Source: Okeania sp. SIO2F5
Lineage (GTDB): Bacteria > Cyanobacteriota > Cyanobacteriia > Cyanobacteriales > Microcoleaceae
Direction: 5' to 3'
Assembly: GCF_010692685.1 (NCBI RefSeq)
Contig: NZ_JAAHGU010000008.1
Location: 233,619 to 261,380 of the forward strand
Length of the DNA: 27,762 bases
This document shows, piece by piece, positions 1,911 to 24,154 of the stretch. Under the pieces are notes generated by a model that had not been told where the DNA came from, made no database searches, and was given only the letters and a program-made list of their open reading frames with translations. The translations under genes and the position numbers were made by a program. The stretch's first letter is position 1, and every line of letters begins with the position of its first letter.

Positions 1911-2534
1911 TTATTGAGCTAATATTTCCCCATCTTTCTTAAAAAAATAAGTTTTATCAATGGATTCAATTTCATAATTTTCCCCAATTTTTTCTATCTC
2001 ATGAGAATAAACAATTCCTGTGGGAAGACTTTGTTGATAACTTTTATGTTCTCCTTGAAAACTCAATAGGAATAACCCATCTTGATGCAGATGTTTAGCA
2101 ACATTAATTAATCCCTTAATATCCTCATCAATATCCTTAGTATGATTTCTTAAGTCAGTCCGATCACCTCGTTGACTTATTACCCAAACTCCTCTACTAG
2201 AAACAGCGATATCAAAAGTTTCTTGGAGGTTCATATCATAGATATCTGCCTCTAGCAACTTTCCCCATCCTCCTAATCTCTTTCTGGCAATTTCGAGCAT
2301 TGATAAGGTAATATCTACTCCTGTAAATTCAGCTTCGGGAGCAAGTGGCAATAATTTTTCAGCAAATAATCCTGTTCCTACACCTAATTCAAGTATTTTT
2401 TTATGACCATCTTTCATCAAAGAATAGACTGCATTAGCCATTCCTTGATAATCATAATAGCCTTGGGTCATCAAAAGATCATAATAATCAGTAAAACTAT
2501 CGTAATAATCGGTGATATTAATATATTGACTCAT
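1911..2534 (-). CDS. Class I SAM-dependent methyltransferase (~207 aa)
   Basis: Motif I KILELGVGTGLFAEKLL (GxGxG) followed by an acidic residue at the end of beta-2 (GVDIT). The six-frame ORF extends to 2555 only by using a TTG codon. The first ATG is MSQYIN at 2534. Confidence 0.75.
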   Translation of the reverse strand: MSQYINITDYYDSFTDYYDLLMTQGYYDYQGMANAVYSLMKDGHKKILELGVGTGLFAEKLLPLAPEAEFTGVDITLSMLEIARKRLGGWGKLLEADIYDMNLQETFDIAVSSRGVWVISQRGDRTDLRNHTKDIDEDIKGLINVAKHLHQDGLFLLSFQGEHKSYQQSLPTGIVYSHEIEKIGENYEIESIDKTYFFKKDGEILAQ

Positions 2535-2706
2535 AGTTAATTTTGCAGGAGTCAAGTGCAGTCCCTAATAAATAATTTGAATTTTAGTAACTATAACCAT
2601 GATGATTTGATTGAAAAATCCGTATCAATAAATCAGCTATTTATTTTCTCAATTTGATGCAACTTAACAGGGAATTTGTATCAGACTTAATTTGGATACA
2701 ATTATT

Positions 2707-3112
2707 TGATTATCTGTTTCACTTTTTGCGATAAACATAAAACTTTTGGCTTTCATAGACACTAACAAAACTAAACCCATCTTGTTCCATAATTTCTTCT
2801 TTTTTCAATTGCTTAATGTAGTTCAACTTAAGTTTTTGTTGAGCTAATATTTCCCCATCTTTCTTAAAAAAATAACTTTTCTCAATGGATTCAATTTCAT
2901 CATTTTCCCCAATCTTTTCTATCTCCTGAGATTAACGAAGTCAGAAGTCAGAAGTCAGAAGTTAACCCACCCCTCGCCCCTCCCCCTCCCAGGAGGGGAA
3001 GTAGGGGATGCGTGAGCAACTCTCCAAAAATATTGCGCCTTAAAAGGCGGGGTTTTAGACCAATATTATTTTGATAAACAATTCCTGTGTGGAAATTTTG
3101 TTGATAACTTTA
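2707..3112 (-). pseudogene. Truncated paralogous copy of the methyltransferase 3' end plus 3' flank (~90% identical to 1782..2048), interrupted by a 140-bp MITE
   Basis: 2707-2930 aligns base-for-base with 1782-2005 with scattered substitutions. After the inserted element (2931-3072), 3073-3112 resumes the alignment with 2006-2048 (…aaacaattcctgtg[t]gg[a]a[a]a[t]tttgttgataactt…). The copy contains only about the last 45 codons. Confidence 0.75.
2931..3072 (+). mobile_element. MITE-like element A (AGTCAGA STRR head, C-rich/G-rich palindrome, ccttaaaagg...ttttagacc tail). Seen inserted into the duplicated methyltransferase fragment.
   Basis: It is absent from the paralogous copy at 2005/2006. 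An inverted copy lies at 14740-14850. Internal hairpin cccctccc-agg-aggggaag. Confidence 0.7.
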
Positions 3113-3159
3113 TAGGTTAGCTATGGGTAATTAGGGTTTGCTGAATAAAGTATGAGTAG

Positions 3160-3370
3160 TAGGGGTAGGAGTCAGGAGTCAGGAGTCAGGAGAAATGGGG
3201 AATTTAGAGGAGGTAGGAGTAAGAATTGTCCCTCAATTTTTTTGTCCGAAGGTTTGCCTTTTATGCTAACTTTTTGAGGGTTTTAGACTAAAACAAGCGC
3301 ATTTTTTGGGAATCGAAGAAAGCTCAAACCTTTACCTGTCAATGGTCTTAAAATTAATTGGCAAACCCTA
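3160..3370 (+). mobile_element. MITE-like element B (second copy at 24610..24830)
   Basis: aggagtcagg...agaaatggggaatttagaggaggtag...attgtccctcaattttt...ctaactt...acctttacctgtcaatg matches 24610-24830 with about 80% identity. Confidence 0.65.
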
Positions 3371-3424
3371 ATTATAAATATCTGGAAATCAAAGAATTAA
3401 TTTAATATTTGGAAAAGGTAGGCA

Positions 3425-3840
3425 ATAGGTAATTTCAGTTATCAGTTATTAGTAACTCTTCAATAAGGAGGCAAGAAAATACGGAATTCTCTTTTCTCTT
3501 GGTCAATTGGATATGGGGAGGTCTCCTCGTCACCCCACCCTACGGGAAGCTCCGAAGCTATACTGCTTTTTATCCCCTTAAAAGGCTATGCTTTATCAAC
3601 ATATTTACTTAACATAAAACTTGACAAAATAGACAAGTTATATTCAAGCCTTTAAAAGTTTTTTTTCAGAGAAAAAGTGTATTCAAAGGTATATTTGTTT
3701 TGATAACTTAAGTAGCTTTTCCTATCTATATGATTCTTTCTCCCTTCTCCCCTGCTCTCCACAAGGTTTTCAGGAGTTCCTTATAAGGGATAGCTTAAAA
3801 GGGGAGGCTTTAGACCAGGATTTTTCGGTCAAAAGAATAT
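3425..3840 (+). mobile_element. Composite MITE-like elements C and D (cagttatcagttattagta...ggaggcaagaaaatacggaattctctttt...ttggatatgggg... then ccttaaaaggggaggctttagaccaggatttttcggt). A direct copy lies at 11697..11812.
   Basis: The C module also occurs inverted at 14585-14695. The D module (3795-3836) closely matches 11769-11812. Confidence 0.6.
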
Positions 3841-3909
3841 CGTTGATTAGTAAATGCACAAATAATTTTATCCATCTACTTAGCACAATAATTTGATTGA
3901 AAAAAATCA

Positions 3910-6900
3910 TCAATTTCCTGCAAATTTTTGATAATCTTCTAGTAACCAATGAGGCAGTTTAGTTATATCTTCGATTCGTAATTGTTCAGAACGACAATAT
4001 AACATTGCTGCTAATAAATAATTTATAGTTTTTGGTGCTTCTATTCCTTTGGCAAGTTGAGCAGCTAACTGTCGTAAAAATTCTTGTTCGCTTTCTATTA
4101 AAGATTCATTTTGAATTTTGCTATTGAGTAATGCTTGATAACCTTTACCCATTTCACCCAAGTAAAAAGTTTCTAGTTTTTGAGGTTCTAAATTTATCCA
4201 AAAATCAGCCATTTGTTTTCTGATTTGACGCAATTCTTGAACCACAGATTCATCAGATGGGTCAATATAGTAAAGATTCACACTGCCCAATAATTGATTG
4301 ATAAATTTTTGCTGTGGAATGTCTAAATTATCTGTTTGATTTGCTGTTAAAACTACATTTTTTTCTGGTCTAACTTCAGCAGTTGTGACTGGAGAATTTT
4401 CTGGTAGATGAGGGGATTTAGATTTAAAAGCTTTTTCCAACTTCTGGGCAACTTCTCGACTTTCAAATATCTGTTTATAATCATCTATCAACCACTGAGG
4501 TAAACGATTTTTAGCATCTCTGACTAACATTTTGCTTGGAGGAAAATATAACATTGCCCCTAAAAATGTATTGATAGCTTTTGGATTAGTTAAACCCATA
4601 CTTGTCTCAGCTAATTCTTTGAGAAATTTCTGTTCATCTTCGGTTTGAGGTTCGTTTTGAATTCCACTTTTTAATAAAGCTTGATATGCTTGTCTAATTT
4701 TGCCTTGATAAGTATTTTCTAATTCTTTGGGAGCTACAGCTAACCAAAAATCAGCTATTTGTTTACGAAGTTGACGTAATTCTTCTATTAAAGATTGGTC
4801 AGTAGGATCGATTTCGTAGAGATTCACACAACCAATCAAACGATTGATAAATTCAGAAGTTAAAGAATTTTTATCTGTAGATTCTATAGTTTTTGGCGCG
4901 TGAATATTTTGCCATTCTTGGAATAATTCTTGAAATAATTTACCTATCTGTGTAGAGTAACTAAGACTGTCTAAAAATGAAGGGTTTTGCTCAATTTTTT
5001 CCAGAATTTCTTGCCGCTTTTGTTGACGTAACTGAGGATTAGTTGCTAGTTTCACTACTAAATTAATATAACTCTCTTCCCCATCAGCAATAAGATCGTC
5101 CATCTTTATCTCTCTGAGCAATGCTGATGCTTGTCGAAACCTTAAAGCATTTCCTTCAACAACTACTGGTGGAACTCCGACCATGAGTGGATCGACCAGA
5201 GAGGTTGCACCACCGTAAGGGAAAGAGTCTAAATAAATATCCGCTAATTTCAAACATTCTTTGATATCTGCTTGACTTGGTAATGCTTTAATTACGACCA
5301 AGCGCTTACTGTCGATACCATGACGTTTCAAAACAGACCGCATCTGTTTGATAAAAGGGGCAAATCGATAAGAATTAGTCCAGTTAGGATTAAAAGGATA
5401 CAAGACTAAAATAGAATTGGGCACTTTTGCTAGGATTTTGGCCCAAGTCTCCCGCATCTCCGGTATAATTTTGTAGAAATTAGCTCCAGAAATAAATATG
5501 GTGGTTTGGTCGGTTGCCCCCCAACTAGAGCGAATTGGTTTTACTCCTGAGGGGGGTTCGGCGATCGCATATCGGAAACAGAGTCCGGAATCTTCTAGGT
5601 TGGCCAGTTTTTCTGTATAATGTTCTTGGGTTGTCTCTGTTGGTGCAGTAATTTTACCGGAGATATAGTAGTCTATGGAGTGCATCCCGGTGGTAGTGGG
5701 AGAATTGATGGATGTAATTTGTATTCTGGCCAGTTTGTGTATTGCCAGCAAGGTAGAATTTTTGATAGTAGCAGTAATATTAGAGCCAATAAATAGAATA
5801 TCAAGGTTGTCGTTGCGAATAATTTGTGCTTGACTTTTCAATTCTTCTGGTAGTTGTAGAAATTTATCGGCGTGACTTTGGCAATATTTTTCTAAGGGAT
5901 GTCCGTTAGATTTTATTGCATAGAGAAATATCTCAAATTTACTCCGGTCTAAATGTTCAAATACTGGGAGTAAGGAATATGTTTCTGTTTGGGGAGAATA
6001 ATGATCTTTGAGAATTCCCAAGCGAATTTTTGGGCGGTTAAATGGGCGGTCGTTCATCTTATAATCTAACTCTAACCCACGATTTTTTAGAGCAAATTCT
6101 ATAATTTCTGCACGCTTGATGTAGAGATTTTTTAAATTGGGCGTAGTAGTAAAATATAGAGGAATCCAATTAGCATTTTCCACAAAAAACCAGGCGATAA
6201 CTTGCCATAATTCTGAGTCTGGATTAGTGGATATATTGTTATGCACATAATTCAACCATCCTACTAGAAAATTATGATAATTATCTGTTTCTCCTATTTC
6301 TTGAAAAAGTTGGGGAGAGGCAAACATAAATTTTAAATAGTCTGTAGCAAACCAGCTAGGTATGGGAGCTTTTTCGTATTTAATTCCTAGTCGATCTGCT
6401 CTTTGATAAAGCATCCCTGCCAATAAATACTGAATGGCTAAAGGTTGGTTAAATCCTTTGGCAAAATTAGCTTTTATTTTGTCTACAAATCTTTGTTCTA
6501 TTTCAGTTAAAGTTTCGTCTTTTATACCACTTGCTAATAATGCTTTGTGTGCTTGACCAAATGCTCCCAAGTAAACATTTTTGAGTTCTTCCGAAGTTTG
6601 AATATTCAGCCAGCATTCTGCAATTTGCTTTCTAATTTCTTGCAATCTAACTAATGCTGATTCATCCAACTGGTTTTGCTGATAAAGCTGAATATTCTGA
6701 TTTATTTCTGTCAGAGATGGTAATAAATTAGTTTTAACAGTAGGAACAACTTTTTGTTGTTCTATAGACTGAGGTTTTGGAGAATTGACTGACTGATTTG
6801 GTGTCTTAATTAAATCTGTTTCCCCACTGACCAAAACAGAGATAAGTAAATTAACTACAGAAGGAGATTGACTACATTTAAGACCTTCACGAATTTGAGC

Positions 6901-9900
6901 GATCGCTCCATTAGTATTTCCTCCTTTCAACATAGAAGCAGCCATTTTTATTGCTTCAATTGCATAATGTTCCCTAGCTTTATCAGATAATTTTTCTGCC
7001 ATTTTTGTTGGTAAATAAGTTTGAGTAATTTCTATAGCTTTCCGAGCATTTTCTATATTACCGCCAGACTGCATTAAGCGGGAAGTTTCCGAGGAGGAAT
7101 GTAAACGGAAACAAGCCAAAATTTCCGGTTCAAACCAAATAGGATAAAAAGCAGTTATTCGCTTCCAAATTTCCCAATCAGCCGCCGAATCTGCCTGAGA
7201 ACAAAAACCTCCTAAATTTTCATAAACCTTACGTTTTACTACCATCCCCACAACTTGAATTCGTTGTTCAATAGTAATTTTTTCTAAGAAATTTTCTATA
7301 ATACCTGGAGTTTTTCTTTCCAACACAGACAAATACTTTTTCTGGTCATATTCATCTATATAATAGTGGCGACAAAATGCTGCTCCTACTGTTGTATTTT
7401 GTTCAATTCCACGACGTAATTTTTCATAAAAACCAGGCAAGACAAAATCATCATCATGGAGTAGATGAATCCAATATCCTTTTGCTCTTTGTAGACAAAT
7501 ATTAAAAATCGGAGCTTGACCAATATCTTGTGGAAAATGTCGATAAAAATTAACTCTTTCTCCCCCTACCTTTCGGACAATTGCTTCTATTTCAGCTTGA
7601 ATTTTATGGTCTGGACAATCATTTACGACTTCTATCTGCATTTCTTCTAGGGCAGGAGCTTGTTGCAATACACTTTTGAGAGTTTGCTCTAAATATTTCG
7701 CCTTTTTATAAGTAGGAATCATCACAGACCAAAACGGTCGATGGTTATTATCTGACAATGGATTAATTTCTGGATATTCAATACCCATTTGATTATTTTT
7801 GAGAGTAGCTATTTGAGGAAATTTTTCTATACCTACTTCTAGTTGTTGTTCTCGTCTTACCGTTGCCCAAATCCAAGGTTTAGCAGATTTTAAAGAAACT
7901 AAATTAAACCCCGCTGCCATTAATAAATCTTTTAATTTTTCTTCAGTATAAGCATTGCCAGAAAAATAATATTGTTGATCTTTTGCCCCTTCCTCATCAA
8001 AATTTCCTAAACTTTCAGCGCTGTGGTCATGTACTTTAATTCTCAAATATCCTCCCGGTTTCAAAACCCGAAATATTTCTCGGAAATAACTTTTGACAAT
8101 AGAAATAGAACGGATGTGCTGAAAAACTATCGTCGAAAAAACAAAGTCGTAATTTTCATCAGCTAACTGTTGCAAATCATCGCCATTATTAATATATAGC
8201 TCTCCATTTTGTTTCCCATCAGCTAAATATTGTCGGGCAAACTGAATCATATTTTCCGAAATATCTACACCATCTACCCGTGCAAATTTTTCTCGCAAAT
8301 ACTTAATAAGACGACCAACACCACAACCGATTTCTAATACTTTCCACTCTGGTTTAACAGGGATACCTTCCAGAATTTGTGGCACCCAAATTTCCATTAA
8401 CTCTTTCCTAACTTGCTTTTTTTGTCCTGGAGAAAGCGTCTCCATTCCACTGTAAGCTAAGACTCGCTCAAAAATAGCTTCATCTAAAGAATTAACATTC
8501 CTAAAATAGCGTTGTATTTCTAACTGCCCGTGATTTATTTGAAATTGAATTTTGCCTAAATTTTTCCTATCTTCCATACCAGATAATTCCTTTGATTTAA
8601 GCTGTATCTCTGACTCTCCATGATTTATTGGAGATGAAATTTCTCCTGACTTTTTCCTATCTTCCACACTAGAAAATTCCTTTGATTTAACCTGCATCTC
8701 TAAATCTCTATGATTTATTGGAAATGGAATTTCTCCTGACTTTTTCCTATCTTCCATAGCAGATAATCTCTCTACTTTAATCCGATTAAAAGTCTGGATA
8801 AATACATCAGTCATAATCTTAGCCATTCGAGACCAAGAAAACTTTTGAGCTTGTGCTAAACCAGCAGTTATTAATTGTTGCCGAACTTCTGATTTTTGCA
8901 CTTCACCCAAAGCATTTACCAATCCATTAACATCATTATCATTAATATATAAAGCTGCTCTTCCTGCCACTTCTGGAATTGAAGCATTTTTACAAGTAAT
9001 AACTGGACAACCACAAGCCATTGCTTCTAAAATAGGCAGTCCAAAACCTTCATATTTTGATGGATAAACTAAAGCCATCGCTCCAGAGTAAGCCGATTTT
9101 AATTCTTGGTCACTCAGTTGTAATAAATGAATTTTACTATCTGAAATATATTTGCTTAATTCTGGCTCTACTTTTCTATTTCCCCCTATACAAACAATCT
9201 CAAATTCTGCGGATTTTTTGAATTTAGCAAAAGCTTGAAAGAATAACATAGTATTTTTATAACCTAGCCAACCTATTCTCTCACCCACTATCAGAAAGTA
9301 TGGGCGATGAATGTTATATTTCAACTGAAAATTAGTAACTTCTTGAGGGGTCGCTCTAGAAAATTTAGGTTCAATTCCGCAGGGAGCTACTCTGATAGAA
9401 TTTGCGGATATTTGAGGAAAATATTTTACTAAATCACGAGCTGTATTTTCTGAAATTGAAATATAAGAAATTGCCTGTTTAATACTACGATGTTTTTCTT
9501 GCCATGAAGGGTTATCAAGATTTTTAGCTAAAACTTCTGGAATCATATCATAAGCCATAAATATAGATGGCGTTAAGATAGGTGTTGTGTAATAAGTAGA
9601 AATGAAAATATCAGCATTTTCTTCATCACATATTTGCTGCAAAATTTGACGGTCTGCATCTATTCTGCCGTAATTATATCCAGGGATAACACGATATTTT
9701 ATGCCGGGAATTTTTGGTGCAGTTTTTGCTCTGTCAAGCACTAAAATATTTTTAGCAAAACTATCTTTTGACCATACTTCCAACAAAGACTTCCAGACAC
9801 GGGCAATACCTGTATTATTTATTTGGAAAAATACACCATCAATAAGAACCTTGAAATCTAATAGCTGCCAATTTTTCGATTTTCTTTCGGCAATATTTTC

Positions 9901-11583
9901 AGAGTCTAACTCAGTTAACTGCTGCTGATTTTTTAGTTTCTTTTCTGTCACTTTTTCATAGTCTACCTCAGTTAAAGATTCTTTCCTTTTCTCAGGTTTA
10001 TATCTACCTATCCTAAATATGCTGTGAAACTCGGAATTTGATAAACTTTTCTCTGTTAATAAGTGCAGAGATTCTCCATCCGAACATAAATTAAGTTTAA
10101 ACTTTTGAGCAATTACAGATAATGCTTTTTTGTTAAATATAGAAATGTGTTGACCTTCTTCCAGAGCATAATACCACCAATCATTAGGACGAGGATTATC
10201 AGGTGGCAATAGCTTTGTACTAAATAAAATATTTCTAGTTTGTTGCAGTATCTTCTCAATTTCTGCCAGAGGATTTATGAAATGTTCAAATACTTCAAAA
10301 GCTGTGACTATTTCATATTTTTGTTCCCTATTTATTTCTCCTTCCCATCCTTGAGAAAAAATATTTTGGCAATATTTATCATATCCATAAAAATCTAATC
10401 CTAAGTCACGCATCATCCGGACAAATAAACCATACCCACACCCATAATCTAGGAATTTATCATTGGCATTAAAGAAGTTGAGAATTAAATTTTCTGTAAT
10501 CAAAGAAAAATTTTGATTTCTAGAAACCAAACCCACATCACTACTAGCAATTGCCTCTGTATAAGCTTCCCCTAACCAGTAAGGATTTTCCGTTTGTACA
10601 AAACCACAATTAGAACATTGAAAATAGTCAACATTATATTTATTTAAAACCTTAGCATTATCAAATTTGTGAGATATTGAACCACAAACTTTGCAATGAA
10701 CATTTTGAATTTGTAAACCACCACTAAACATTGTTTTTTCTGTAAAATTGTCTGCTGGAATATTACGAATAATAGAGGGAGGATGAGTCAGAGGAAAAAT
10801 CATTTCCTCCACAGACATATTGGCAAACTTATTAATACTTGAAGTGTGAGTAGCACCTTGACCAAAACCAATATTAGAAACTAAATTAACCTTGGGTAAA
10901 ATAGTTAAACCATGATAATTCCAACAGGCAAATGTCCAAGCATAAGCCCAAGAATTAAACCCTTGATAATTCTTCTGAAAAATCTCCGACCAATATTGAA
11001 CTGCCCTACTATTTTGTAGAATATTTTCTAACCACTTACTACCTCTAAGCTTCGACCATAATTGCATTTGATTATCATAATTTTTCCATGCTCTTCGCCA
11101 AGTTGCCCAACCCCAACAATGGGGATAGCGAGAGAAATAATAACTAGACTCTATTGGATTATTACCAAACTGAAAATTATCTCCAGATATAGCCATAATC
11201 CTCTCATCATTTCGATATCTTTCTAATAACTCTTCACAAAACCTAAAAAAAGTTAAATGAGGTACACAGTCATCCTCCAAAATAATTGCTGATTCTACCA
11301 AACTAAAAACCCAATTTAATCCATTATAAATACGCTCTCTACAACCTAAATTCTTCTCAGAATAATTAGTCAAAACTTCACAATTCCAATCAACCTGATC
11401 GATTATCTTTCTTGCTGCCATACACCTCTCAACTTCTCCATATCTATCGAGGCGAGGAGCATCAGCTATTACAAATAATTGAAGAGGCTTTACTTGACGA
11501 ATTGCCTCAAATACTTTTGCCGTTGTATCTGGTCGATTAAATATAATTATAACTACAGGAGTTGTTAATTGAAATTGAGTCAT
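3910..11583 (-). CDS. Giant multi-domain glycosyltransferase/methyltransferase (2557 aa). Domain order: GnT-I(GT13)-like GT-A; Zn-ribbon plus class I MTase; GT4; 3x31-aa repeat linker; class I MTase; GT2-like GT-A; helical module; OGT/GT41-like; two more helical modules.
   Basis: Uninterrupted 7.67-kb ORF with an ATG start. The motifs recognised in each domain are listed in the domain entries below. Confidence 0.9.
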   Translation of the reverse strand: MTQFQLTTPVVIIIFNRPDTTAKVFEAIRQVKPLQLFVIADAPRLDRYGEVERCMAARKIIDQVDWNCEVLTNYSEKNLGCRERIYNGLNWVFSLVESAIILEDDCVPHLTFFRFCEELLERYRNDERIMAISGDNFQFGNNPIESSYYFSRYPHCWGWATWRRAWKNYDNQMQLWSKLRGSKWLENILQNSRAVQYWSEIFQKNYQGFNSWAYAWTFACWNYHGLTILPKVNLVSNIGFGQGATHTSSINKFANMSVEEMIFPLTHPPSIIRNIPADNFTEKTMFSGGLQIQNVHCKVCGSISHKFDNAKVLNKYNVDYFQCSNCGFVQTENPYWLGEAYTEAIASSDVGLVSRNQNFSLITENLILNFFNANDKFLDYGCGYGLFVRMMRDLGLDFYGYDKYCQNIFSQGWEGEINREQKYEIVTAFEVFEHFINPLAEIEKILQQTRNILFSTKLLPPDNPRPNDWWYYALEEGQHISIFNKKALSVIAQKFKLNLCSDGESLHLLTEKSLSNSEFHSIFRIGRYKPEKRKESLTEVDYEKVTEKKLKNQQQLTELDSENIAERKSKNWQLLDFKVLIDGVFFQINNTGIARVWKSLLEVWSKDSFAKNILVLDRAKTAPKIPGIKYRVIPGYNYGRIDADRQILQQICDEENADIFISTYYTTPILTPSIFMAYDMIPEVLAKNLDNPSWQEKHRSIKQAISYISISENTARDLVKYFPQISANSIRVAPCGIEPKFSRATPQEVTNFQLKYNIHRPYFLIVGERIGWLGYKNTMLFFQAFAKFKKSAEFEIVCIGGNRKVEPELSKYISDSKIHLLQLSDQELKSAYSGAMALVYPSKYEGFGLPILEAMACGCPVITCKNASIPEVAGRAALYINDNDVNGLVNALGEVQKSEVRQQLITAGLAQAQKFSWSRMAKIMTDVFIQTFNRIKVERLSAMEDRKKSGEIPFPINHRDLEMQVKSKEFSSVEDRKKSGEISSPINHGESEIQLKSKELSGMEDRKNLGKIQFQINHGQLEIQRYFRNVNSLDEAIFERVLAYSGMETLSPGQKKQVRKELMEIWVPQILEGIPVKPEWKVLEIGCGVGRLIKYLREKFARVDGVDISENMIQFARQYLADGKQNGELYINNGDDLQQLADENYDFVFSTIVFQHIRSISIVKSYFREIFRVLKPGGYLRIKVHDHSAESLGNFDEEGAKDQQYYFSGNAYTEEKLKDLLMAAGFNLVSLKSAKPWIWATVRREQQLEVGIEKFPQIATLKNNQMGIEYPEINPLSDNNHRPFWSVMIPTYKKAKYLEQTLKSVLQQAPALEEMQIEVVNDCPDHKIQAEIEAIVRKVGGERVNFYRHFPQDIGQAPIFNICLQRAKGYWIHLLHDDDFVLPGFYEKLRRGIEQNTTVGAAFCRHYYIDEYDQKKYLSVLERKTPGIIENFLEKITIEQRIQVVGMVVKRKVYENLGGFCSQADSAADWEIWKRITAFYPIWFEPEILACFRLHSSSETSRLMQSGGNIENARKAIEITQTYLPTKMAEKLSDKAREHYAIEAIKMAASMLKGGNTNGAIAQIREGLKCSQSPSVVNLLISVLVSGETDLIKTPNQSVNSPKPQSIEQQKVVPTVKTNLLPSLTEINQNIQLYQQNQLDESALVRLQEIRKQIAECWLNIQTSEELKNVYLGAFGQAHKALLASGIKDETLTEIEQRFVDKIKANFAKGFNQPLAIQYLLAGMLYQRADRLGIKYEKAPIPSWFATDYLKFMFASPQLFQEIGETDNYHNFLVGWLNYVHNNISTNPDSELWQVIAWFFVENANWIPLYFTTTPNLKNLYIKRAEIIEFALKNRGLELDYKMNDRPFNRPKIRLGILKDHYSPQTETYSLLPVFEHLDRSKFEIFLYAIKSNGHPLEKYCQSHADKFLQLPEELKSQAQIIRNDNLDILFIGSNITATIKNSTLLAIHKLARIQITSINSPTTTGMHSIDYYISGKITAPTETTQEHYTEKLANLEDSGLCFRYAIAEPPSGVKPIRSSWGATDQTTIFISGANFYKIIPEMRETWAKILAKVPNSILVLYPFNPNWTNSYRFAPFIKQMRSVLKRHGIDSKRLVVIKALPSQADIKECLKLADIYLDSFPYGGATSLVDPLMVGVPPVVVEGNALRFRQASALLREIKMDDLIADGEESYINLVVKLATNPQLRQQKRQEILEKIEQNPSFLDSLSYSTQIGKLFQELFQEWQNIHAPKTIESTDKNSLTSEFINRLIGCVNLYEIDPTDQSLIEELRQLRKQIADFWLAVAPKELENTYQGKIRQAYQALLKSGIQNEPQTEDEQKFLKELAETSMGLTNPKAINTFLGAMLYFPPSKMLVRDAKNRLPQWLIDDYKQIFESREVAQKLEKAFKSKSPHLPENSPVTTAEVRPEKNVVLTANQTDNLDIPQQKFINQLLGSVNLYYIDPSDESVVQELRQIRKQMADFWINLEPQKLETFYLGEMGKGYQALLNSKIQNESLIESEQEFLRQLAAQLAKGIEAPKTINYLLAAMLYCRSEQLRIEDITKLPHWLLEDYQKFAGN
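3913..4900 (-). other. C-terminal pair of paralogous ~140-aa alpha-helical modules. A third copy lies at about 6300..6700, before the GT41-like domain.
   Basis: Shared pattern L(R/Q)(E/Q)(I/L)RKQ(I/M)A(E/D)(C/F)W(L/I)N/A...Y(L/Q)G...(A/G)(Y/H)(K/Q)ALL(A/K/N)SGI(K/Q)(D/N)E...(I/T)N(Y/T)(L/F)L(A/G)AMLY across all three copies. Confidence 0.7.
4930..6065 (-). other. Domain 6: OGT/HMW1C-type (GT41-like) glycosyltransferase catalytic domain
   Basis: RPKIRLGILKDHYSPQTETYSLLPVFEHLDRSKFEIFLY; IFISGANFYKIIPEMRETWAKILAKVPNSILVLYPF; DSFPYGGATSLVDPLMVGVPPVVVEGNALRFRQASALL. These are collinear with human OGT segments (RLRIGYVSSDFGNHPTSHL...; [75 protein letters not shown]). Recalled from memory. Confidence 0.6.
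6990..7750 (-). other. Domain 5: GT2-like GT-A glycosyltransferase
   Basis: WSVMIPTYKKAKYLEQTLKSVLQQ at the N-terminus, an acidic IEVVNDCPD region, and LLHDDDF as the DxD motif. Confidence 0.6.
7950..8480 (-). other. Domain 4: class I SAM methyltransferase (Methyltransf_11/23-like)
   Basis: VLEIGCGVGRLIKYL (motif I), DGVDISENM, VLKPGGYL. Confidence 0.75.
8490..8765 (-). repeat. Intragenic tandem repeat, about 3 x 93 bp, encoding (M/V)EDRKKSGEIxxPINHxxxEIQxKSKEFSx
   Basis: The DNA-level repeat is visible at 8560-8765 (ttttcctatcttccata/c... x3). The protein repeats are 31 aa each. It forms a linker between the GT4 and second MTase domains. Confidence 0.85.
8860..9890 (-). other. Domain 3: GT4-family (GT-B, retaining) glycosyltransferase
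   Basis: VLIDGVFFQINNTGIARVW at the N-terminus. EGFGLPILEAMACGCPVI (E-x7-E signature) at 8997-9050. Confidence 0.8.
10150..10710 (-). other. Domain 2: Cys4 zinc-ribbon plus class I SAM methyltransferase (the architecture of sugar C-methyltransferases)
   Basis: CKVCGS...(24 aa)...CSNCGF, then LDYGCGYGLFVRMMRDLG (motif I) and EIVTAFEVFEHF. Confidence 0.7.
10715..11575 (-). other. Domain 1 of the giant protein: GnT-I (GT13)-like GT-A glycosyltransferase domain. Proteins of this type are often annotated HlpA-like in bacteria.
   Basis: PVVIIIFNRPDTT...LFVIADAPR...AIILEDDCVPHLTFFRFCEEL...MAISGDNF...PHCWGWATWRRAW parallels GnT-I motifs (ILVIACDR / VVVEDDLEVAPDFFEYF / CVSAWNDNG / GLGWLL). Recalled from memory. 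Confidence 0.5.
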
Positions 11584-11811
11584 TTTTAGTTTAATAGGAA
11601 AGAAGGAAGAAGGAATAAGGAAGAGATAAGAAGGAATAAAGTAGATAAATCTACAGATAAATCAAGTTCAACTAAAGATTTGTTTAAGAAGGAGAAAGTC
11701 ATTTCAGTTATCAGTTATCAGTACCTCTGTAATAAAGAGGCTTTAAATACGAAATTATCTTTTTTTTTCCTTAAAAGAGGAGGCTTTAGACCAAGATTTT
11801 TCGGTAATAAA

Positions 11812-12205
11812 GTTGATAGCTGATATCTCACTACTGAATCCTGAGAAACTTTTAATTATGGAAAATATTTCCATTATTTTTTCTCCTTTCAAAGTAATCA
11901 AAACTGATAGCTGACTGCTGAGTGCTAAATGCTTATAAGCTAATAAAGCTGATAGCTGATACCTGAGTGCTGAATGCTTATAAACTTTTAATTATGGAAA
12001 ATATTTCCATTATTTTCCCCTCCTTTCAAAGTAATAAAAACTGATAGCTGAATGCTGAGTGCTAAATGCTTATCAGGTAAGAAAGCTGATAGCTGATACC
12101 TGAGTACTGAATGCTGAGAAACTTTTAATTCTGGGAAATATCTCAATTACTTTTTCCTCCTCTAAAGGTAATAAAGCTGAATCCTCACCGCTGAATGCTT
12201 AACCA
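11812..12205. promoter_or_regulatory. Three tandem ~137-bp repeats 230-620 bp upstream of the giant gene start. Each contains the near-palindrome atggaaaatatttccat, which is degenerate in copy 3.
   Basis: Copies at 11812-11947, 11948-12084 and 12085-12205. Each unit also carries ctgatagctga twice and ctgagtgctgaatgct. The palindromes are at 11858-11874 and 11994-12010. Confidence 0.6.
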
Positions 12206-12325
12206 ATGGATAATTGATAATTATTTTGCTTGGGAATCTTTGTACAAAAAGTGAAAAATTTTATATTTTTATTATCTAAAAGAAATAGTTGATCTACAAG
12301 GTTTAAAAATTAAATTCATTATCCA

Positions 12326-12856
12326 TTATCCATTATCCATTAATGACGTCGCTTTATATAAAATATCTTGATGAGACCGTTCCAGTAAAGTCTCATTGAT
12401 AGAATTAGATAATACTGCAACAGGTTCATATAATGGTCTTAAAAAAGAGTCAATTGCTTTTCTATCTCCATAACGTACTTCTATCAACATAAACTTTGGT
12501 TGGTATTTATCAAAATCAATACCTTGCAACACATCTAATTCAAAACCTTCAACATCCAACGAAAACAAATCTATATTTTCAACTCCATACTTATCAAGAA
12601 TTGCAGTTAGTGTCCTTACTCGTACATTAATTTCATAACTATGATTAATATTTTGAACTTGACAACCCGCTTTTAAATGAACCTTTTTTTCCTCCTCTGA
12701 CTTCATAGCTCCATCAACAAAAGACATAAGATTACAATAGTACATTTTTATATAATCCTGACCATAATTAAAAGGAACCAAAGCATAATTTTCAACCGCT
12801 GACTTAGACCGATTAATTCTACATTTTTCTGCTAACTCTGGTATTGCCTCTATCAA
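12326..12856 (-). CDS. FkbM-family methyltransferase C-terminal portion. It is in the same frame as 12890..14038 and separated from it by a single TGA, so it is probably the continuation of that gene.
   Basis: IDLFSLDVEGFELDVLQGIDF is the characteristic FkbM motif (IDLLKIDVEGAE..VLKG). The ORF as listed begins with TTG, not ATG. The segment between the two ORFs (…SQSNT*YFEKYKNWQGILIEAIPE…) is in frame. Confidence 0.65.
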   Translation of the reverse strand: MIEAIPELAEKCRINRSKSAVENYALVPFNYGQDYIKMYYCNLMSFVDGAMKSEEEKKVHLKAGCQVQNINHSYEINVRVRTLTAILDKYGVENIDLFSLDVEGFELDVLQGIDFDKYQPKFMLIEVRYGDRKAIDSFLRPLYEPVAVLSNSINETLLERSHQDILYKATSLMDNG

Positions 12857-12889
12857 AATACCTTGCCAGTTTTTGTACTTCTCAAAATA

Positions 12890-14038
12890 TCAAGTATTAC
12901 TTTGACTTATCCCATCATTCGCCCCAGCTTCAATAAAAAATCCATTTTCCCAAGTTAAGTAAGAAGCAAGTTTAAGATCGAGCTGATTCAAAGCATAAGA
13001 TTTTCTCATTAAATCAGGTTTTATTTCTAATGCCTTTTGCTGATAAATATTAGCCTCAAATAATCTACCCTGTTTCTGTAAAATATTACCAATACTCCAA
13101 TATATACCTGCCGACTTTGGTTCAAGTGCAATAACTTTTTGATAGTAAGCGTTCGCCTGTTCTAGCTGACCTTTTTGGGAATAAATTTTGCCTAGTTTTG
13201 CATAAACTATTGCCAAGTTTGGTTGTGATTTTATTGCTTTGTTATAAGAACGAATAGACTTTTCAATTTGACCTTTAGAATAATAAAAATCCCCTAATCC
13301 CTGATAAGCTTCAGCAGCATAAGGTTGATTTTTAATAGCTTCGTAATAAGCCAAAATCTGATTATCTTGACTGTCTAGATTTTTATTTTTTCTTTTAGCT
13401 CTTGCTTCACCTTGACCCAAAGAAATACCCAAGCAAGACTGCTTTTGACTAGGTAATTTTAAATCCGATAAAAAATCATCACTTTGAAAAAAAATAGAAG
13501 TACAGCTTTTATATCTTTGACTAGGAACTAAACCATAAAAATCAATACGTTTAAATCCTTGATGATGAAGCAAAATTACTCCCCTATCATTTTCCTCTCT
13601 ATCCGAATTATCAAATACTATCCAGCCATTTTTAGATAATTTTTCACCACATATTTCAGCACATTTAACTCGCTCAATTCCATCAATAATAATCACATCA
13701 AAATCACCATTATCATAATTCTGAATTTCCTCAACATATCTTTGCCTATCTTCCCTCAAAACTAGCTTCACATTTTGAGGAATATAAGTTGAAACATTGA
13801 CAAAATAATCAGGATTATGTTCTACAGAAACCACCTGCTTAACTCGGTCAGCGTACCAAAAAGTTGACTGTCCGCTCCCATATTCAAATACTCGAAAATC
13901 GCTCTTTAACTTATCCTCAATAAATTCAATAGCAGGATAAGAATACCAAGGAAGAGGATGATAATTATAATCTATAGATTTTCCTTCTTTTAATGAATTG
14001 AGCCATCCTGAAGTTTCTAGATAGTTCAAATTAGTCAT
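12890..14038 (-). CDS. N-terminal part of a methyltransferase-TPR-FkbM protein: class I MTase-like domain, then 4 TPR repeats, then the FkbM SAM-binding motif. It ends at an in-frame TGA.
   Basis: ATG start. VFEYGSGQSTFW...DVIIIDGIER (MTase-like). AYYEAIKNQPYAAEAYQGLGDFYYSKGQIEKSIRSYNKAIKSQPN... (TPR). The C-terminus FIEAGANDGISQS is the FkbM-family motif I. Confidence 0.75.
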   Translation of the reverse strand: MTNLNYLETSGWLNSLKEGKSIDYNYHPLPWYSYPAIEFIEDKLKSDFRVFEYGSGQSTFWYADRVKQVVSVEHNPDYFVNVSTYIPQNVKLVLREDRQRYVEEIQNYDNGDFDVIIIDGIERVKCAEICGEKLSKNGWIVFDNSDREENDRGVILLHHQGFKRIDFYGLVPSQRYKSCTSIFFQSDDFLSDLKLPSQKQSCLGISLGQGEARAKRKNKNLDSQDNQILAYYEAIKNQPYAAEAYQGLGDFYYSKGQIEKSIRSYNKAIKSQPNLAIVYAKLGKIYSQKGQLEQANAYYQKVIALEPKSAGIYWSIGNILQKQGRLFEANIYQQKALEIKPDLMRKSYALNQLDLKLASYLTWENGFFIEAGANDGISQSNT

Positions 14039-15073: not shown

Positions 15074-16915
15074 GTGAATAATAAAAGGTGGAGAAATGCT
15101 GGCCTATATGCCCTATTAGCAATAGTAGTCATCGCCTTAGCAACAGCATTCTTCGATCAACAACCCCAAACCAGCGAAACCTGGAAATATAGTCAATTTA
15201 TTCAGCAGGTAGAAACCAAAAACGTAGACAGAGTAAGCATCAGCGCCGACCGTACAGCAGCACGAGTCAAAGTCGCCGACGGTAGTATAGTCCGCGTTAA
15301 CCTACCCAACGACCCAGACCTAATAAACATCCTCACCAAAAACAACGTAGACATTTCCGTACTCCCCCAAAGCGAAGAAGGTTTCTGGGTTAGAGCATTA
15401 AGTAGTTTATTCTTCCCCGTCCTATTATTAGTGGGACTATTTTTCCTACTACGTCGTGCCCAAAGTGGACCTGGTAGCCAAGCTATGAACTTTGGTAAAT
15501 CCAAAGCAAGAGTCCAAATGGAACCCCAAACCCAAGTCACATTCGGCGATGTAGCAGGTATTGAACAAGCCAAACTAGAACTAACAGAAGTAGTAGACTT
15601 CCTCAAAAATGCTGATCGCTTCACAGCAGTAGGCGCAAAAATTCCCAAAGGAGTATTGTTAGTAGGTCCTCCGGGAACAGGTAAAACCCTATTAGCAAAA
15701 GCAGTAGCTGGGGAAGCAGGAGTACCATTCTTCTCCATCTCCGGTTCAGAATTTGTAGAAATGTTTGTGGGTGTAGGTGCTTCCCGCGTCCGCGACCTAT
15801 TTGAACAAGCAAAATCTAACGCTCCCTGTATCGTATTTATAGATGAAATTGATGCGGTGGGTCGTCAACGGGGTGCTGGTTTAGGTGGTGGTAATGATGA
15901 AAGAGAACAAACCCTCAACCAGCTACTTACCGAAATGGACGGTTTTGAAGGCAATACAGGTATCATTATTATTGCAGCTACTAACCGCCCAGATGTTCTA
16001 GATGCTGCCCTACTCCGACCAGGTCGTTTTGACCGTCAAGTAGTAGTAGACCGCCCTGACTATGCAGGTCGTCTAGAAATTCTCAATGTTCATGCTCGTG
16101 GTAAGAGTCTATCTAAAGATGTAGACCTAGAAAAAATTGCTCGTCGAACTCCTGGATTTACTGGAGCAGACTTGTCTAACCTATTAAATGAAGGAGCTAT
16201 TTTGGCAGCTCGTCGCAACTTAACTGAAATCTCTATGGACGAAGTTAATGATGCTATTGACCGGGTATTAGCTGGTCCAGAAAAGAAAGACCGAGTAATG
16301 AGCGAGAAGCGTAAGGAGTTAGTAGCGTATCACGAAGCTGGTCATGCTTTAGTCGGAGCGTTGATGCCTGATTATGACCCAGTACAGAAAATTAGTATTA
16401 TTCCTCGCGGTCGTGCTGGTGGTTTGACTTGGTTTACTCCTAGCGAAGACCGGATGGACTCTGGTTTGTATTCTCGTGCTTATCTACAAAATCAGATGGC
16501 TGTAGCTTTGGGTGGTCGTCTTGCTGAGGAGATTATTTTTGGTGATGAAGAGGTGACTACTGGTGCTTCTAACGATTTACAGCAGGTTGCTAATGTGGCA
16601 AGGCAAATGGTGACTCGCTTTGGCATGAGCGATCGCCTTGGTCCAGTTGCTCTTGGTCGTCAGAACGGTAATATGTTCTTAGGTAGGGATATTATGGCGG
16701 AGCGTGATTTTTCTGAGGAAACTGCTGCTGCTATTGATGATGAGGTGCGCAATTTGGTAGAGCAAGCTTATCGTCGGGCGAAGGAAGTATTGGTAACTAA
16801 CCGTCATATTTTGGATAAGTTAGCCGAGATGTTGGTTGACAAGGAGACTGTAGACTCTGATGAGTTACAGGAGTTGTTGGCAACTAATGATGTGAAGATG
16901 GCGGCTTTGATATAG
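15074..16915 (+). CDS. ftsH: ATP-dependent zinc metalloprotease FtsH
   Basis: GTG start 11 nt after AAGGAG. Two N-terminal TM helices, Walker A GPPGTGKT, Walker [10 protein letters not shown], second region of homology (ATNRPDVLD), and HEAGHAL zinc-binding motif. Full length, 613 aa. Confidence 0.95.
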
Positions 16916-18690: not shown

Positions 18691-18804
18691 GTTAGCAGAG
18701 ATTATCCGTTAGGATAAACCCAACATTAGTAAGGTTTTGTTGGGTTGAACGGTAGTGAAACCCAACCTACTAAACTCTGACTTTTGACTTTTGACTTGTC
18801 CTAT

Positions 18805-19428
18805 ATGAGCAATCTTTCTTACAGTAAATTCACATTGGAAATAGCCAAGACAAATTTTGAATTAACCTTAGAAGAAAATCAAGATTTATTCGCCCAAATT
18901 AAACCAGTTAAACCTTCTGAAATTCTCACAACTATCTTACGAGAATATATTCCATTAGCAACAGCTATTAATACAGAAAAAGCTCGTTCTGAACTATTAA
19001 TTTCTCAAATTTTAGCTGATGTGAGACGGCAATTAAATTATCGAATTAGTCTTTTTTCAGGAACAGAATTTAACGTAGAAGCAGAATTAGGATTACAAGG
19101 ATATTGTGATTTTTTGCTCAGTTTTTCCTCCGAACAATATTTCATTACAGCTCCAGTGATTATCATTGTTGAAGCTAAAAATGAAAATATTATTCGTGGG
19201 TTAGGACAATGTGTTGCTAGTATGGTTGGAGCGCAATTATTTAATCAGCGAGCTGATAATCCAGTTAAGGTTATTTATGGCGCAGTTACAACTGGAACAA
19301 ATTGGAAGTTTTTAACACTTGAAGAAAAAATTGTGTGTATAGATGCAGTGGAATATTACGTCAAAGAAGTTGATAAAATTTTAGGAATTATTTTACAGCC
19401 ATTTCGAGAATATCGAGAAAATTCTTGA
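18805..19428 (+). CDS. Hypothetical protein (207 aa) with a possible PD-(D/E)xK nuclease-like core (GYCDFLL ... VIIIVEAKNE)
   Basis: The ORF as listed starts with TTG at 18784. The first ATG is at 18805 (MSNLSYSKF). The D...E-x-K spacing is suggestive only. Confidence 0.55.
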   Translation: MSNLSYSKFTLEIAKTNFELTLEENQDLFAQIKPVKPSEILTTILREYIPLATAINTEKARSELLISQILADVRRQLNYRISLFSGTEFNVEAELGLQGYCDFLLSFSSEQYFITAPVIIIVEAKNENIIRGLGQCVASMVGAQLFNQRADNPVKVIYGAVTTGTNWKFLTLEEKIVCIDAVEYYVKEVDKILGIILQPFREYRENS

Positions 19429-19598: not shown

Positions 19599-20138
19599 AT
19601 GAAAATTATACAAAGTCGCATAGCAAAGGTTTTACTTGCAAGTATTATCGCTCTCTTAACAATTTTTACATCTGTTGTGAATCCTCAAGGTATCTCTGGT
19701 GTTCTATTTGCTCAGAAACCCAATGGAGAATTGTCATACTATAGCTATAGTGGTTTGCCAGACCGTAATAACTTTAACAACAATGGTAATGAAAGGGTAA
19801 TATCTAGCGGTTGGAATATTTACAGCAAGATTTTTTCAGGAGGTTCTGGTGTTCTATTTGCTCAGAAATCCAATGGAGAATTGTCATACTATAGCTATAG
19901 TGGTTTGCCAGACCGTAATAACTTTAACAACAATGGTAATGAAAGGGTAATATCTAGCGGTTGGAATATTTACAGCAAGATTTTTTCAGGAGGTTCTGGT
20001 GTTCTATTTGCTCAGAAACCTAATGGAGAATTATCATACTATAACTATAGTGGCTCGCCAGACCTTAATAACTTCAACAACAATGGTAATGAAAGGGTAA
20101 TATCTAGCGGTTGGAATATTTACAGCAAGATTTTCTAA
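19599..20138 (+). CDS. Small secreted protein: signal peptide plus three near-identical 47-aa tandem repeats (GVLFAQKPNGELSYYSYSGLPDRNNFNNNGNERVISSGWNIYSKIFSGGS)
   Basis: RBS AAGGAAGG 7 nt upstream of the ATG. Hydrophobic N-terminus KVLLASIIALLTIFTSVV. DNA repeats of 141 bp x3 at about 19700-20122 with more than 95% identity. Confidence 0.8.
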   Translation: MKIIQSRIAKVLLASIIALLTIFTSVVNPQGISGVLFAQKPNGELSYYSYSGLPDRNNFNNNGNERVISSGWNIYSKIFSGGSGVLFAQKSNGELSYYSYSGLPDRNNFNNNGNERVISSGWNIYSKIFSGGSGVLFAQKPNGELSYYNYSGSPDLNNFNNNGNERVISSGWNIYSKIF

Positions 20139-23530: not shown

Positions 23531-23923
23531 ATGGAACCACCAATTGAAAGAATACGACTTTCTCAAACAGCTAAAGATCAGTTAACTAAGCTGAAACGTA
23601 ATACCAAAATAGACCAATGGAATATTCTTTGTCGTTGGGCATTTTGTTGCTCTTTAGCAGAATCAAGCATTCCCTCTCTAGTACCAACCCCTGCTGATAG
23701 TAATTTAGAATTAACATGGAGAATTTTCGGTGGAGAATTTTCTGACATCTTTTTATTAGCTCTAAAGCAACGTTGTTATAATGATCAAATAGGCATAGAA
23801 AGAGAAACTTTGGCCACTCAGTTTCGCCTACACTTGCATCGAGGTATTGGATATTTAGCTGGTAACCCAAATATCAAAAGGATAGAAGACTTAATTGCAA
23901 CTGTGATTCCTTCTCTCGACTAA
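23531..23923 (+). CDS. Small protein (130 aa), possibly a DndE-like family member
   Basis: ATG start. The N-terminal IRLSQTAKDQLTKLKRNTKIDQWNILCRWAFCCSL resembles my recollection of the DndE-family N-terminal motif (RLS..AKDQL..LKRRTGI.NWNVLCRWA). No other dnd genes are present. Confidence 0.5.
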   Translation: MEPPIERIRLSQTAKDQLTKLKRNTKIDQWNILCRWAFCCSLAESSIPSLVPTPADSNLELTWRIFGGEFSDIFLLALKQRCYNDQIGIERETLATQFRLHLHRGIGYLAGNPNIKRIEDLIATVIPSLD

Positions 23924-24003: not shown

Positions 24004-24154
24004 CAAATTGTAAATAAATAATAGAAGAAGTTGAGTCAATACAAGTAATTAACTAAGTTAACTAAGTTAATATTATAGAAGCATTCTTATCCTAAAGTTG
24101 GAGGTACAACAGCTAGGTAGGTTAAATATTGGAACAATAAAAAGGAGATATGCA

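Follow-up and report, generated by a model that had tools for sequence, protein, structure and literature searches.

The GT41 glycosyltransferases considered here for comparison are OGT, plant SPINDLY (SPY), Xanthomonas XcOGT, Thermobaculum TtOGT, the HMW1C-like NGTs and the cyanobacterial Ogt/OgtA enzymes, and to our knowledge all characterised members of the family glycosylate proteins. In stepwise systems of cytoplasmic protein glycosylation, such as the Actinobacillus NGT (GT41) with its alpha-1,6-glucosyltransferase (GT4) and the glycosylation of flagellins and serine-rich adhesins, a GT41 or other priming enzyme is followed by GT4 or GT2 extenders, sometimes with methyltransferases, and the oligosaccharide is built on the protein before export. 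In cyanobacteria, glycosylation of PilA requires Ogt/OgtA, whose gene usually adjoins pilA (PMC9306852; PMC12288463). Enzymes that join several glycosyltransferase and methyltransferase modules are already an established kind, an example being Klebsiella O7 ORF6, which consists of a methyltransferase-kinase, a coiled coil and two rhamnosyltransferase modules (PMC11231755).

The window analysed here, 27,762 nucleotides in length, is from Okeania sp. SIO2F5 and contains an open reading frame with an ATG start that encodes 2557 aa (3910..11583, minus strand; all features below lie on the minus strand unless marked otherwise). An earlier note, made from the sequence alone, had proposed that four glycosyltransferases and two methyltransferases are fused in this chain, and each was recovered by profile or fold search. 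All six catalytic modules, namely a GT13-like GT-A domain, a zinc-ribbon methyltransferase, GT4, a class I methyltransferase, GT2 and GT41, possess intact motifs. As in E. coli O9a WbdA/WbdD, Klebsiella O7 ORF6 and Geobacillus WsaE, polymerase/terminator enzymes of ABC-transporter-dependent glycan assembly that are soluble or peripheral and vary in module organisation between strains, several glycosyltransferases share one polypeptide with SAM methyltransferases. The Okeania protein is likewise soluble and lacks any hydrophobic segment (the highest Kyte-Doolittle mean over 19 residues is 1.47). It differs from them in carrying six catalytic modules where they have two to four, in possessing GT13-like and GT41 modules, in lacking a kinase module and a recognised coiled-coil ruler, and in having no adjacent wzm/wzt. 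The stepwise protein glycosylation systems, in turn, consist of separate proteins encoded in an operon with their substrate, whereas in the Okeania protein all activities are joined in one chain, and its gene has no substrate gene beside it.

The same module order is present in the corresponding open reading frames of six further genomes: Okeania hirsuta, Okeania SIO3B5, Dapis, two Trichodesmium assemblies and one Microcoleaceae MAG. One of the Trichodesmium assemblies is the complete genome of Trichodesmium erythraeum IMS101, and an assembly chimera is therefore ruled out. The protein is 94% identical end to end to that of O. hirsuta, the sole sizeable gap being 60 aa in the number of linker repeats. 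The order of all nine modules is fixed and is fully kept from Okeania to Trichodesmium and Dapis, and every module exhibits 71-89% identity between Okeania and Trichodesmium, so that all of them are under selection.

The N-terminal module (residues 1-290; 10714..11583) had been described as a GnT-I/GT13-like GT-A domain, and this was recovered by fold only. Its GT-A fold is nearest to GnT-I, and the invariant E103-D104-D105 corresponds to the EDD metal/nucleotide motif that it has in common with GnT-I and POMGnT1 of GT13, its closest counterparts in fold. The PF03071 profile gave no match to residues 1-300 even at E <= 10, and the weak Pfam GNT-I match falls instead on the GT2 domain (residues 1257-1335). 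Unlike GnT-I and POMGnT1, to which it is only 12-17% identical, the module is bacterial and cytoplasmic and has its own C-terminal helical sub-domain. It is followed by a Cys4 zinc ribbon (C297, C300, C323 and C326) with a class I SAM methyltransferase (residues 291-520; 10024..10713), in which motif I reads DYGCGYG at 379-385 and Methyltransf_23 matches residues 367-498 above its Pfam gathering score (E 1e-40). Of the earlier designation as a zinc-ribbon C-methyltransferase type, the zinc ribbon and the SAM methyltransferase stand, but the C-methyltransferase label does not: the PF08421 zinc domain scores 17.2 bits, under its cut-off of 31.3, the C-methyltransferase C-terminal domain PF08484 is absent from a whole-protein Pfam scan at E <= 0.1, and matches to TcaB9/KijD1 are insignificant (E 0.4-0.9). 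Across the two methyltransferase modules of the protein, profile scores are 139 bits for PF13489 and 86.8 bits for PF08241.

The GT4 domain (GT-B fold, retaining type; residues 575-935; 8779..9861) carries an EX7E motif at E845-E853 and was identified above gathering score by Glyco_trans_1_4 and Glycos_transf_1 at residues 761-905, the module scoring 75 and 68.5 bits with these two profiles. The repeat linker behind it (8513..8767), previously read as three units of 31 aa, has an actual period of 90 bp (30 aa) and 2.8 tandem copies. With three copies here and one in O. hirsuta, it is a variable and dispensable spacer. The second class I SAM methyltransferase (residues 1036-1245; 7849..8478) possesses the motif LEIGCGVG at 1083-1090 and matches Methyltransf_11/12/25 above gathering score at residues 1083-1181. 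The GT2 GT-A glycosyltransferase (residues 1270-1560; 6904..7776) has its DDD at 1377-1379 and a helical C-terminal extension, and Glycos_transf_2 matches residues 1286-1436 with 69 bits against a cut-off of 23.3, as expected from the earlier reading of both domains.

The earlier note had staked its interpretation on an OGT/GT41-like C-terminal region (catalytic region, residues 1771-2235; 4879..6273), and Glyco_transf_41 (PF13844) matches residues 2017-2203 with 104.6 bits against a cut-off of 25. In phmmer searches the region reaches E 1e-31 to SPINDLY and 1e-23 to OGT, and its GT-B fold is nearest to GT41 structures, with 518 residues superposing on AaNGT. The essential lysine is kept as K2038 in GANFYK (SPY K665, human OGT K842), Y2123 is the counterpart of SPY Y744, which is proposed to stabilise the sugar, and T2127 in YGGATS is the counterpart of the phosphate-binding SPY T748. 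Two histidines, near the acceptor and nucleotide sites, are replaced. The N-terminal catalytic-lobe histidine (SPY H495, human OGT H558) is Q1865 within an SPQTET stretch, where glutamine is the majority residue in 17 relatives and the neighbouring threonine is at least 90% conserved; in SPINDLY, the H495A and H495F mutants at the equivalent position are inactive. The nucleobase-stacking histidine SPY H728 is I2107. TPR profiles gave no match in residues 1480-1900 or 2250-2557. Given Q1865, I2107 and the lack of a TPR superhelix, acceptor and donor recognition are likely to differ from those of proven protein glycosyltransferases. A TPR superhelix is not universal in GT41, since HMW1C-type members also lack one.

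Three paralogous helical modules of about 140 aa flank the GT41 domain, as had been noticed previously: H1 (residues 1625-1770; 6274..6711), H2 (residues 2236-2390; 4414..4878) and H3 at the C-terminus (residues 2410-2557; 3913..4356). Over about residues 1631-1765, 2245-2385 and 2425-2557 they share 37-50% mutual identity (E 1e-26 to 1e-46), and H1 always directly precedes the GT41 domain in relatives. They have no match in Pfam or the PDB and no TPR signature, and in the structural model they are predicted to be multi-helix bundles with no obvious long coiled coil. The modules are an undescribed cyanobacterial domain and not TPRs. This helical domain family comprises 662 representative clusters, among which there are also stand-alone proteins. 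The GT41 part of the protein resembles GT41 protein glycosyltransferases in being soluble and cytoplasmic with a helical domain before the catalytic lobes, but differs from OGT and SPY in that the TPRs are replaced by this new module, which is repeated twice after the catalytic domain. It differs from known GT41 enzymes in being embedded with three other glycosyltransferase families and two methyltransferases, and we know of no earlier case of such a fusion.

The gene lies beside a divergently transcribed ftsH (15074..16915, plus strand), a conserved neighbour that adjoins the giant gene in 51 of 80 related loci and serves as a locus marker among relatives. Upstream is a partner gene of 570 codons (12326..14038) encoding a Methyltransf_24 (GXM-like) methyltransferase, TPRs and an FkbM methyltransferase, and downstream is a class I SAM methyltransferase of 214 aa (1911..2555) that occupies the same position in 14 related loci; the three adjacent genes together carry five SAM methyltransferase domains. 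Neither the window nor the orthologous loci beside ftsH contain a pilin, ogt or obvious acceptor gene or a prepilin motif, except that in Planktothrix a prepilin-like gene follows 4-9 kb downstream (loci L008, L049, L058 and L061). In four relatives, two Nostoc, Aulosira and Waterburya (three Nostocales and one Waterburya), the gene order is PseG/H-PseI-giant-ogtA-pilA, in which PseG/H and PseI are pseudaminic-acid genes, and the giant ends in GT4-GT2-H1-GT41; this pilin-adjacent arrangement was seen only there (L086-L088 and L090).

The earlier statement that no characterised system has such an architecture stands, as literature searches retrieved no characterised GT41-containing multi-glycosyltransferase enzyme and no spirulan/EPS genes of this type. 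The protein is not unique, but one member of a large annotated family of cyanobacterial giants with shuffled modules. The same cassettes recur in different combinations in hundreds of cyanobacterial proteins, and across relatives this one locus shows more than 25 architectures. The zinc-ribbon methyltransferase and GT4 form a fixed cassette in most of 111 homologues (about 70), and the H1-GT41 cassette is highly paralogous, a single 7.6-Mb contig carrying three copies or more. H1-GT41 relatives are fused to sulfotransferases, fucosyltransferases, LicD and methyltransferases, and further partners of the cassettes include KpsC-like PF05159, GT11/NodZ fucosyltransferases and CmcI/TylF/FkbM methyltransferases. 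Throughout the family, every fused partner is an enzyme that builds or tailors glycans.

Very probably, the protein is an assembly line in which several enzymes build a methylated glycan. We infer that its modules act on one common product, and likewise the nature of the acceptor and the sugar donors and the role of the H modules. The soluble cytoplasmic megasynthase, together with its TPR/double-methyltransferase neighbour and the small methyltransferase, would make a short, heavily O-methylated heteroglycan. A product linked to protein, either a pilin or another exported surface protein, is the reading favoured here, though tentatively. The GT41 module may itself attach the first sugar to the polypeptide, or it may extend a chain that a classical TPR-type Ogt has primed; the other three glycosyltransferases would add further sugars, the methyltransferases would methylate those sugars, and the H modules could dock the enzyme to its acceptor or a partner. 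The unambiguous GT41 fold with its retained lysine, tyrosine and threonine, the PseI/ogtA-pilA synteny in four relatives and the lack of wzm/wzt favour linkage to protein, whereas the paralogy and varied fusions of H1-GT41 suit a general module for glycan elongation better than an enzyme dedicated to priming. A more specific form of the proposal, which is speculative and rather unlikely to hold in full, is that H1-GT41 is a new TPR-less GT41 branch within combinatorial megasynthases that, in the cytoplasm, build complex methylated glycans (also sulfated or fucosylated ones in relatives) directly on exported proteins such as pilins. H would be the acceptor-docking domain, and modules would be swapped at the ftsH-adjacent locus, so that every lineage of filamentous cyanobacteria would have a surface-glycoprotein 'serotype' of its own.

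It is also possible, and only a little less likely, that the product is a lipid-linked polysaccharide. The protein would then be a peripheral-membrane polymerase or modifier of a methylated O-antigen, sheath or slime (EPS) polymer with exporters encoded elsewhere; the methyltransferases would methylate repeat units or cap the chain, GT41 would be one more GT-B enzyme on a glycan acceptor, and the H modules would act in oligomerisation, length control or docking. In favour of this reading, O-methyl sugars are abundant in the LPS and EPS of cyanobacteria. The hypervariable module content at a conserved locus resembles serotype variation, and the KpsC-like, GT11/NodZ, sulfotransferase, LicD and CmcI/TylF/FkbM fusions of relatives, the glutamine in place of the acceptor-side histidine and the absence of TPRs all point the same way. 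Moreover, proteins with multiple glycosyltransferase and methyltransferase modules are a hallmark of ABC-transporter-dependent assembly, as in Klebsiella O7 ORF6 (PMC11231755). Against this, no wzm/wzt-type transporter lies beside the gene in the window or in about 90 loci (10 annotated and 80 unannotated), and wzx/wzy, initiating phosphoglycosyl transferase and OPX/PCP genes adjoin it in none of them; the only ABC components, of ECF type and DevA/DevC, are 6-10 kb away and were rejected as an adjacent polysaccharide exporter. The missing neighbouring transporter is weak evidence, because polysaccharide genes are scattered in cyanobacterial genomes. The protein also has no predicted membrane anchor, the pilA-ogt synteny in four relatives points elsewhere, and we know of no GT41 member shown to act in polysaccharide synthesis.

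The free recombination seen across relatives, and the occurrence of each cassette in other contexts, would also suit independent enzymes that are loosely fused, being translated together only so that they are co-regulated, and that act on different substrates with no single product. This is improbable, given the fixed order of the nine modules, the restriction of fused partners to glycan enzymes, and the action of characterised multi-module glycan enzymes on a single product (PMC11231755). Least probable of all is a cytoplasmic polymethylated oligo- or polysaccharide like mycobacterial MMP/MGLP, made by alternate glycosylation and O-methylation by the methyltransferase-GT4 cassette and never exported: the best PDB sequence match of GT4 is the methylmannose-polysaccharide mannosyltransferase ManT of M. 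hassiacum (7qsg, E 2e-11), the cassette is fixed, and the enzyme is soluble with no export gene nearby, but the ManT similarity is at the ordinary GT4 level, the sulfotransferase, fucosyltransferase and LicD fusions of H1-GT41 suggest surface glycans, and we know of no intracellular polymer of this kind in cyanobacteria.

Okeania, Trichodesmium, Arthrospira, Planktothrix and Microcoleus are bloom- and mat-forming cyanobacteria. The glycans on their surfaces are believed to affect how they glide and aggregate and how they fare under grazing and phage attack, but hardly any of the enzymes behind these glycans have been assigned. The ftsH-adjacent gene is conserved and easily located, and its module content predicts lineage-specific glycan chemistry. 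The GT41 fusion suggests either that GT41 chemistry extends beyond single-sugar modification of proteins or that GT41 acts on glycans, and glyco-engineering could make good use of soluble multi-enzyme fusions that produce defined methylated oligosaccharides.

In Trichormus variabilis, five tandem CTB-family bacteriocin genes sit beside two GT41 genes. Such bacteriocins were rejected as general peptide substrates, as no homologue is present in the window or in any other locus and the arrangement is thus not general. When the flanks were scanned for promoters and terminators, candidates were no more numerous than in shuffled sequences, and the window contains no tRNA or Rfam matches. The downstream methyltransferase gene is decayed in Trichodesmium. 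The upstream partner is 78% identical to the intact Trichodesmium gene but is interrupted in the window by a single in-frame stop codon (12890-12892), at a position that is leucine in relatives.

The giant ORF (3910..11583, minus strand, ATG start) encodes a 2557-aa protein in which five modules exceed the Pfam gathering threshold: Methyltransf_23 (residues 367-498), GT4 (761-905), Methyltransf_11/12/25 (1083-1181), GT2 (1286-1436) and GT41 (2017-2203; 104.6 bits against a cut-off of 25). A Cys4 ribbon (C297/C300/C323/C326), two occurrences of methyltransferase (MTase) motif I, an EX7E motif in the GT4 module (E845-E853) and a DDD motif in the GT2 module (1377-1379) are also present. The N-terminal 300 residues have no Pfam match whatever, and a weak Pfam GNT-I match falls within the GT2 domain, away from the N-terminus. 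The earlier note had called this terminus GT13-like, which is right at the level of the fold, because L102-E103-D104-D105 is invariant and E103-D104-D105 matches the EDD motif of GnT-I. The label of C-methyltransferase type for the zinc-ribbon MTase is not supported, given that PF08421 scores below threshold and PF08484 has no match in the Pfam scan of the giant; TcaB9 matches at E of about 0.9. The giant contains no hydrophobic segment (maximum Kyte-Doolittle 19-mer mean 1.47) and is on that basis taken to be a soluble cytoplasmic protein.

The nearest relatives of the window, which has a G+C content of 30-45%, are Okeania genomes, and the Okeania hirsuta protein is 94% identical to the giant across its full length. 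The nine-module order is shared by O. hirsuta, Okeania SIO3B5, Dapis, a Microcoleaceae MAG and two Trichodesmium assemblies, one of them the complete T. erythraeum IMS101 chromosome, with identities between Okeania and Trichodesmium of 71-89% for all modules. Its presence in six other genomes, including complete IMS101, rules out an assembly chimera. Nor is the giant unique, since cassette-shuffled relatives were found along with these orthologues. A first homologue search found 111 proteins, 1400-3550 aa long, almost all from filamentous cyanobacteria, which recombine three cassettes: GT13-like; zinc-ribbon MTase and GT4, a pair that travels together in about 70 of the 111; and the helical module H1 with GT41, followed by zero to four further H modules. 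A search with the H1-GT41 cassette alone returned more than 370 proteins, some of them stand-alone (about 605-635 aa), with several paralogues possible per genome and with fusion partners that include sulfotransferase PF13469, MTases, GT2, GT11/NodZ fucosyltransferases, LicD and CmcI. Among proteins P0136-P0154 and P0228 (e.g. 10001-12727 of locus L010) are many of Microcoleus type, about 908 aa long, in which H1-GT41 is joined to Sulfotransfer_3.

The three helical modules around the GT41 domain are paralogous, as the earlier note proposed (37-50% identity, E 1e-26 to 1e-46). Searched against 1.84 billion representative clusters, an H-module profile matched 662 (127 of them at E <= 1e-30); a single protein can hold as many as five copies, and a class of 280-400-aa proteins consists solely of two H modules. 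The module has no match in Pfam or the PDB and is an undescribed domain. The two-module proteins (P0272, P0275, P0285 and about 25 similar representatives) match no Pfam or NCBIfam family, and their Ala/Arg/Gly/Pro-rich composition suggests an origin in high-GC cyanobacteria. The linker repeat (8513-8767), previously described as 3x31 aa, was computed as 2.8 copies of a 90-bp (30-aa) unit. Close relatives differ in copy number, with three in the window, a single one in O. hirsuta and a larger number in Okeania protein P0008, and the single O. hirsuta copy accounts for essentially all of the 60-aa length difference between that protein and the giant.

GT41 residues were mapped by phmmer alignment to SPINDLY (SPY), whose active-site residues have described roles (PMC9715652). 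K2038, the counterpart of the essential SPY K665/hOGT K842 (PMC9715652), is conserved, as are Y2123 (SPY Y744) and T2127 (SPY T748), and T1866 is a conservative change from SPY S496; with these key residues conserved, the module looks catalytically competent, judged from the alignment. Two residues are replaced: Q1865 occupies the position of SPY H495 (hOGT H558), where H495A and H495F are inactive, and I2107 that of the nucleobase-stacking SPY H728 (PMC9715652). Most aligned relatives have Gln at position 1865, the adjacent Thr is at least 90% conserved, and the consensus is PQTET. The GT41 domain of the giant therefore differs from proven protein glycosyltransferases exactly at the sites that read the acceptor and the nucleotide base.

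Divergent from and upstream of the giant gene lies ftsH (15074-16915), with 100% protein identity to the O. hirsuta locus L012. Among 80 loci from species-representative genomes, 51 have ftsH (87-100% identical) at this position, and the others are mostly cut by a contig end or from Nostocales. The ftsH-adjacent loci come from about ten filamentous cyanobacterial genera (Okeania, Trichodesmium, Dapis, Microcoleus, Tychonema, Planktothrix, Arthrospira, Lyngbya, Limnoraphis and Capilliphycus) and hold more than 25 different giant-gene architectures; in certain Okeania giants the second MTase occurs three or four times in tandem. Before the giant gene lies one of 570 codons (12326-14038, minus strand) that encodes a GXM-like MTase with TPRs and an FkbM MTase and is 78% identical to an intact Trichodesmium gene. 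A lone in-frame stop (12890-12892, SNT*YFEKY) interrupts it at a site that is Leu in five relatives; this reflects either a nonsense mutation that arose recently or an error in sequencing. A 214-aa MTase gene comes after the giant gene, and the three genes together encode five MTase domains. No wzm/wzt, wzx/wzy or initiating transferase gene adjoins the giant gene in any locus examined, and the ABC ATPases encoded at a distance of 6-10 kb belong to the ECF and DevA/DevC types.

A different neighbourhood is found in two Nostoc, one Aulosira and one Waterburya (loci L086-L088 and L090), where the pseudaminic-acid synthesis genes for a PseG/PseH fusion and then PseI (pseudaminic acid synthase) precede a 2182-aa relative ending in GT4-GT2-H1-GT41 (e.g. 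L090 2871-15434). On the opposite strand after it are a classical TPR-GT41 (OgtA-like) gene and one for a prepilin whose C-terminal half is rich in Ser/Thr. Cyanobacterial ogt typically lies beside pilA and is needed for PilA glycosylation (PMC9306852; PMC12288463), and this synteny links the giant family to protein glycosylation, in a side branch and not in the ftsH-adjacent orthologues. No pilin gene was found in the window or in ftsH-adjacent loci outside Planktothrix, where a prepilin-like gene lies 4-9 kb downstream.

It is firmly supported that the giant is a soluble enzyme bearing four glycosyltransferase and two MTase active sites, acting alongside as many as three further MTase domains, and that the fusion partners of its family all build or tailor glycans. 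Its parts belong to known families (GT41, GT4, GT2, class I MTases and a GT13-like fold), and multi-module glycan assembly enzymes are a kind already known; new are a GT41 domain within a multi-module glycan megasynthase, a repeated undescribed helical module in place of TPRs, six catalytic modules on one chain and combinatorial variation at a conserved ftsH-adjacent locus, and the giant is readily testable. By analogy with characterised multi-module glycan enzymes (PMC11231755), all modules very probably work on a single growing O-methylated heteroglycan. We lean slightly, and tentatively, towards a protein-linked product, because every characterised GT41 to our knowledge acts on proteins, because cyanobacterial Ogt acts on pilin, and because relatives occur in the pilA-ogt-Pse locus and a polysaccharide export gene is never adjacent to the giant gene. 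This last observation counts against a lipid-linked surface polysaccharide, which is nearly as good a reading and fits the architecture class of the giant, the paralogy of the H1-GT41 cassette and its promiscuous fusions, the changes in GT41 residues on the acceptor side and a locus that varies much as serotypes do. A fusion of enzymes that do not cooperate is improbable, and an intracellular polymethylated polysaccharide, suggested by the match of the GT4 module to ManT, is very unlikely.

In Trichormus variabilis (L009 1905-15421), one TPR-type GT41 gene and one GT2+H1-GT41 gene adjoin five tandem CTB family bacteriocin genes, together with an ATP-grasp gene, MTases and a DegT aminotransferase, an arrangement absent from every other locus examined. 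The precursors have double-glycine leaders and Ser/Thr/Asn-rich cores with N-x-S/T sequons, and may be glycosylated. In the window, the stretches flanking the 214-aa MTase gene (485-1910 and 2556-3909) contain no ORF of at least 60 aa, parts of them share 73-88% DNA identity with Trichodesmium, and the MTase gene itself is only a frameshifted remnant there (L001 17575-18142), all of which fits the gene-poor, pseudogene-rich genomes of the clade. Other genes of the window (18784-19428, 19599-20138, 20352-22172, 23531-23923 and 24098-24583) include a 214-aa and a 606-aa ORF without any family match, a dndE-like gene that is solitary, with other dnd genes absent from the window, a gene for a tachylectin-like protein and a ComFB-domain gene.
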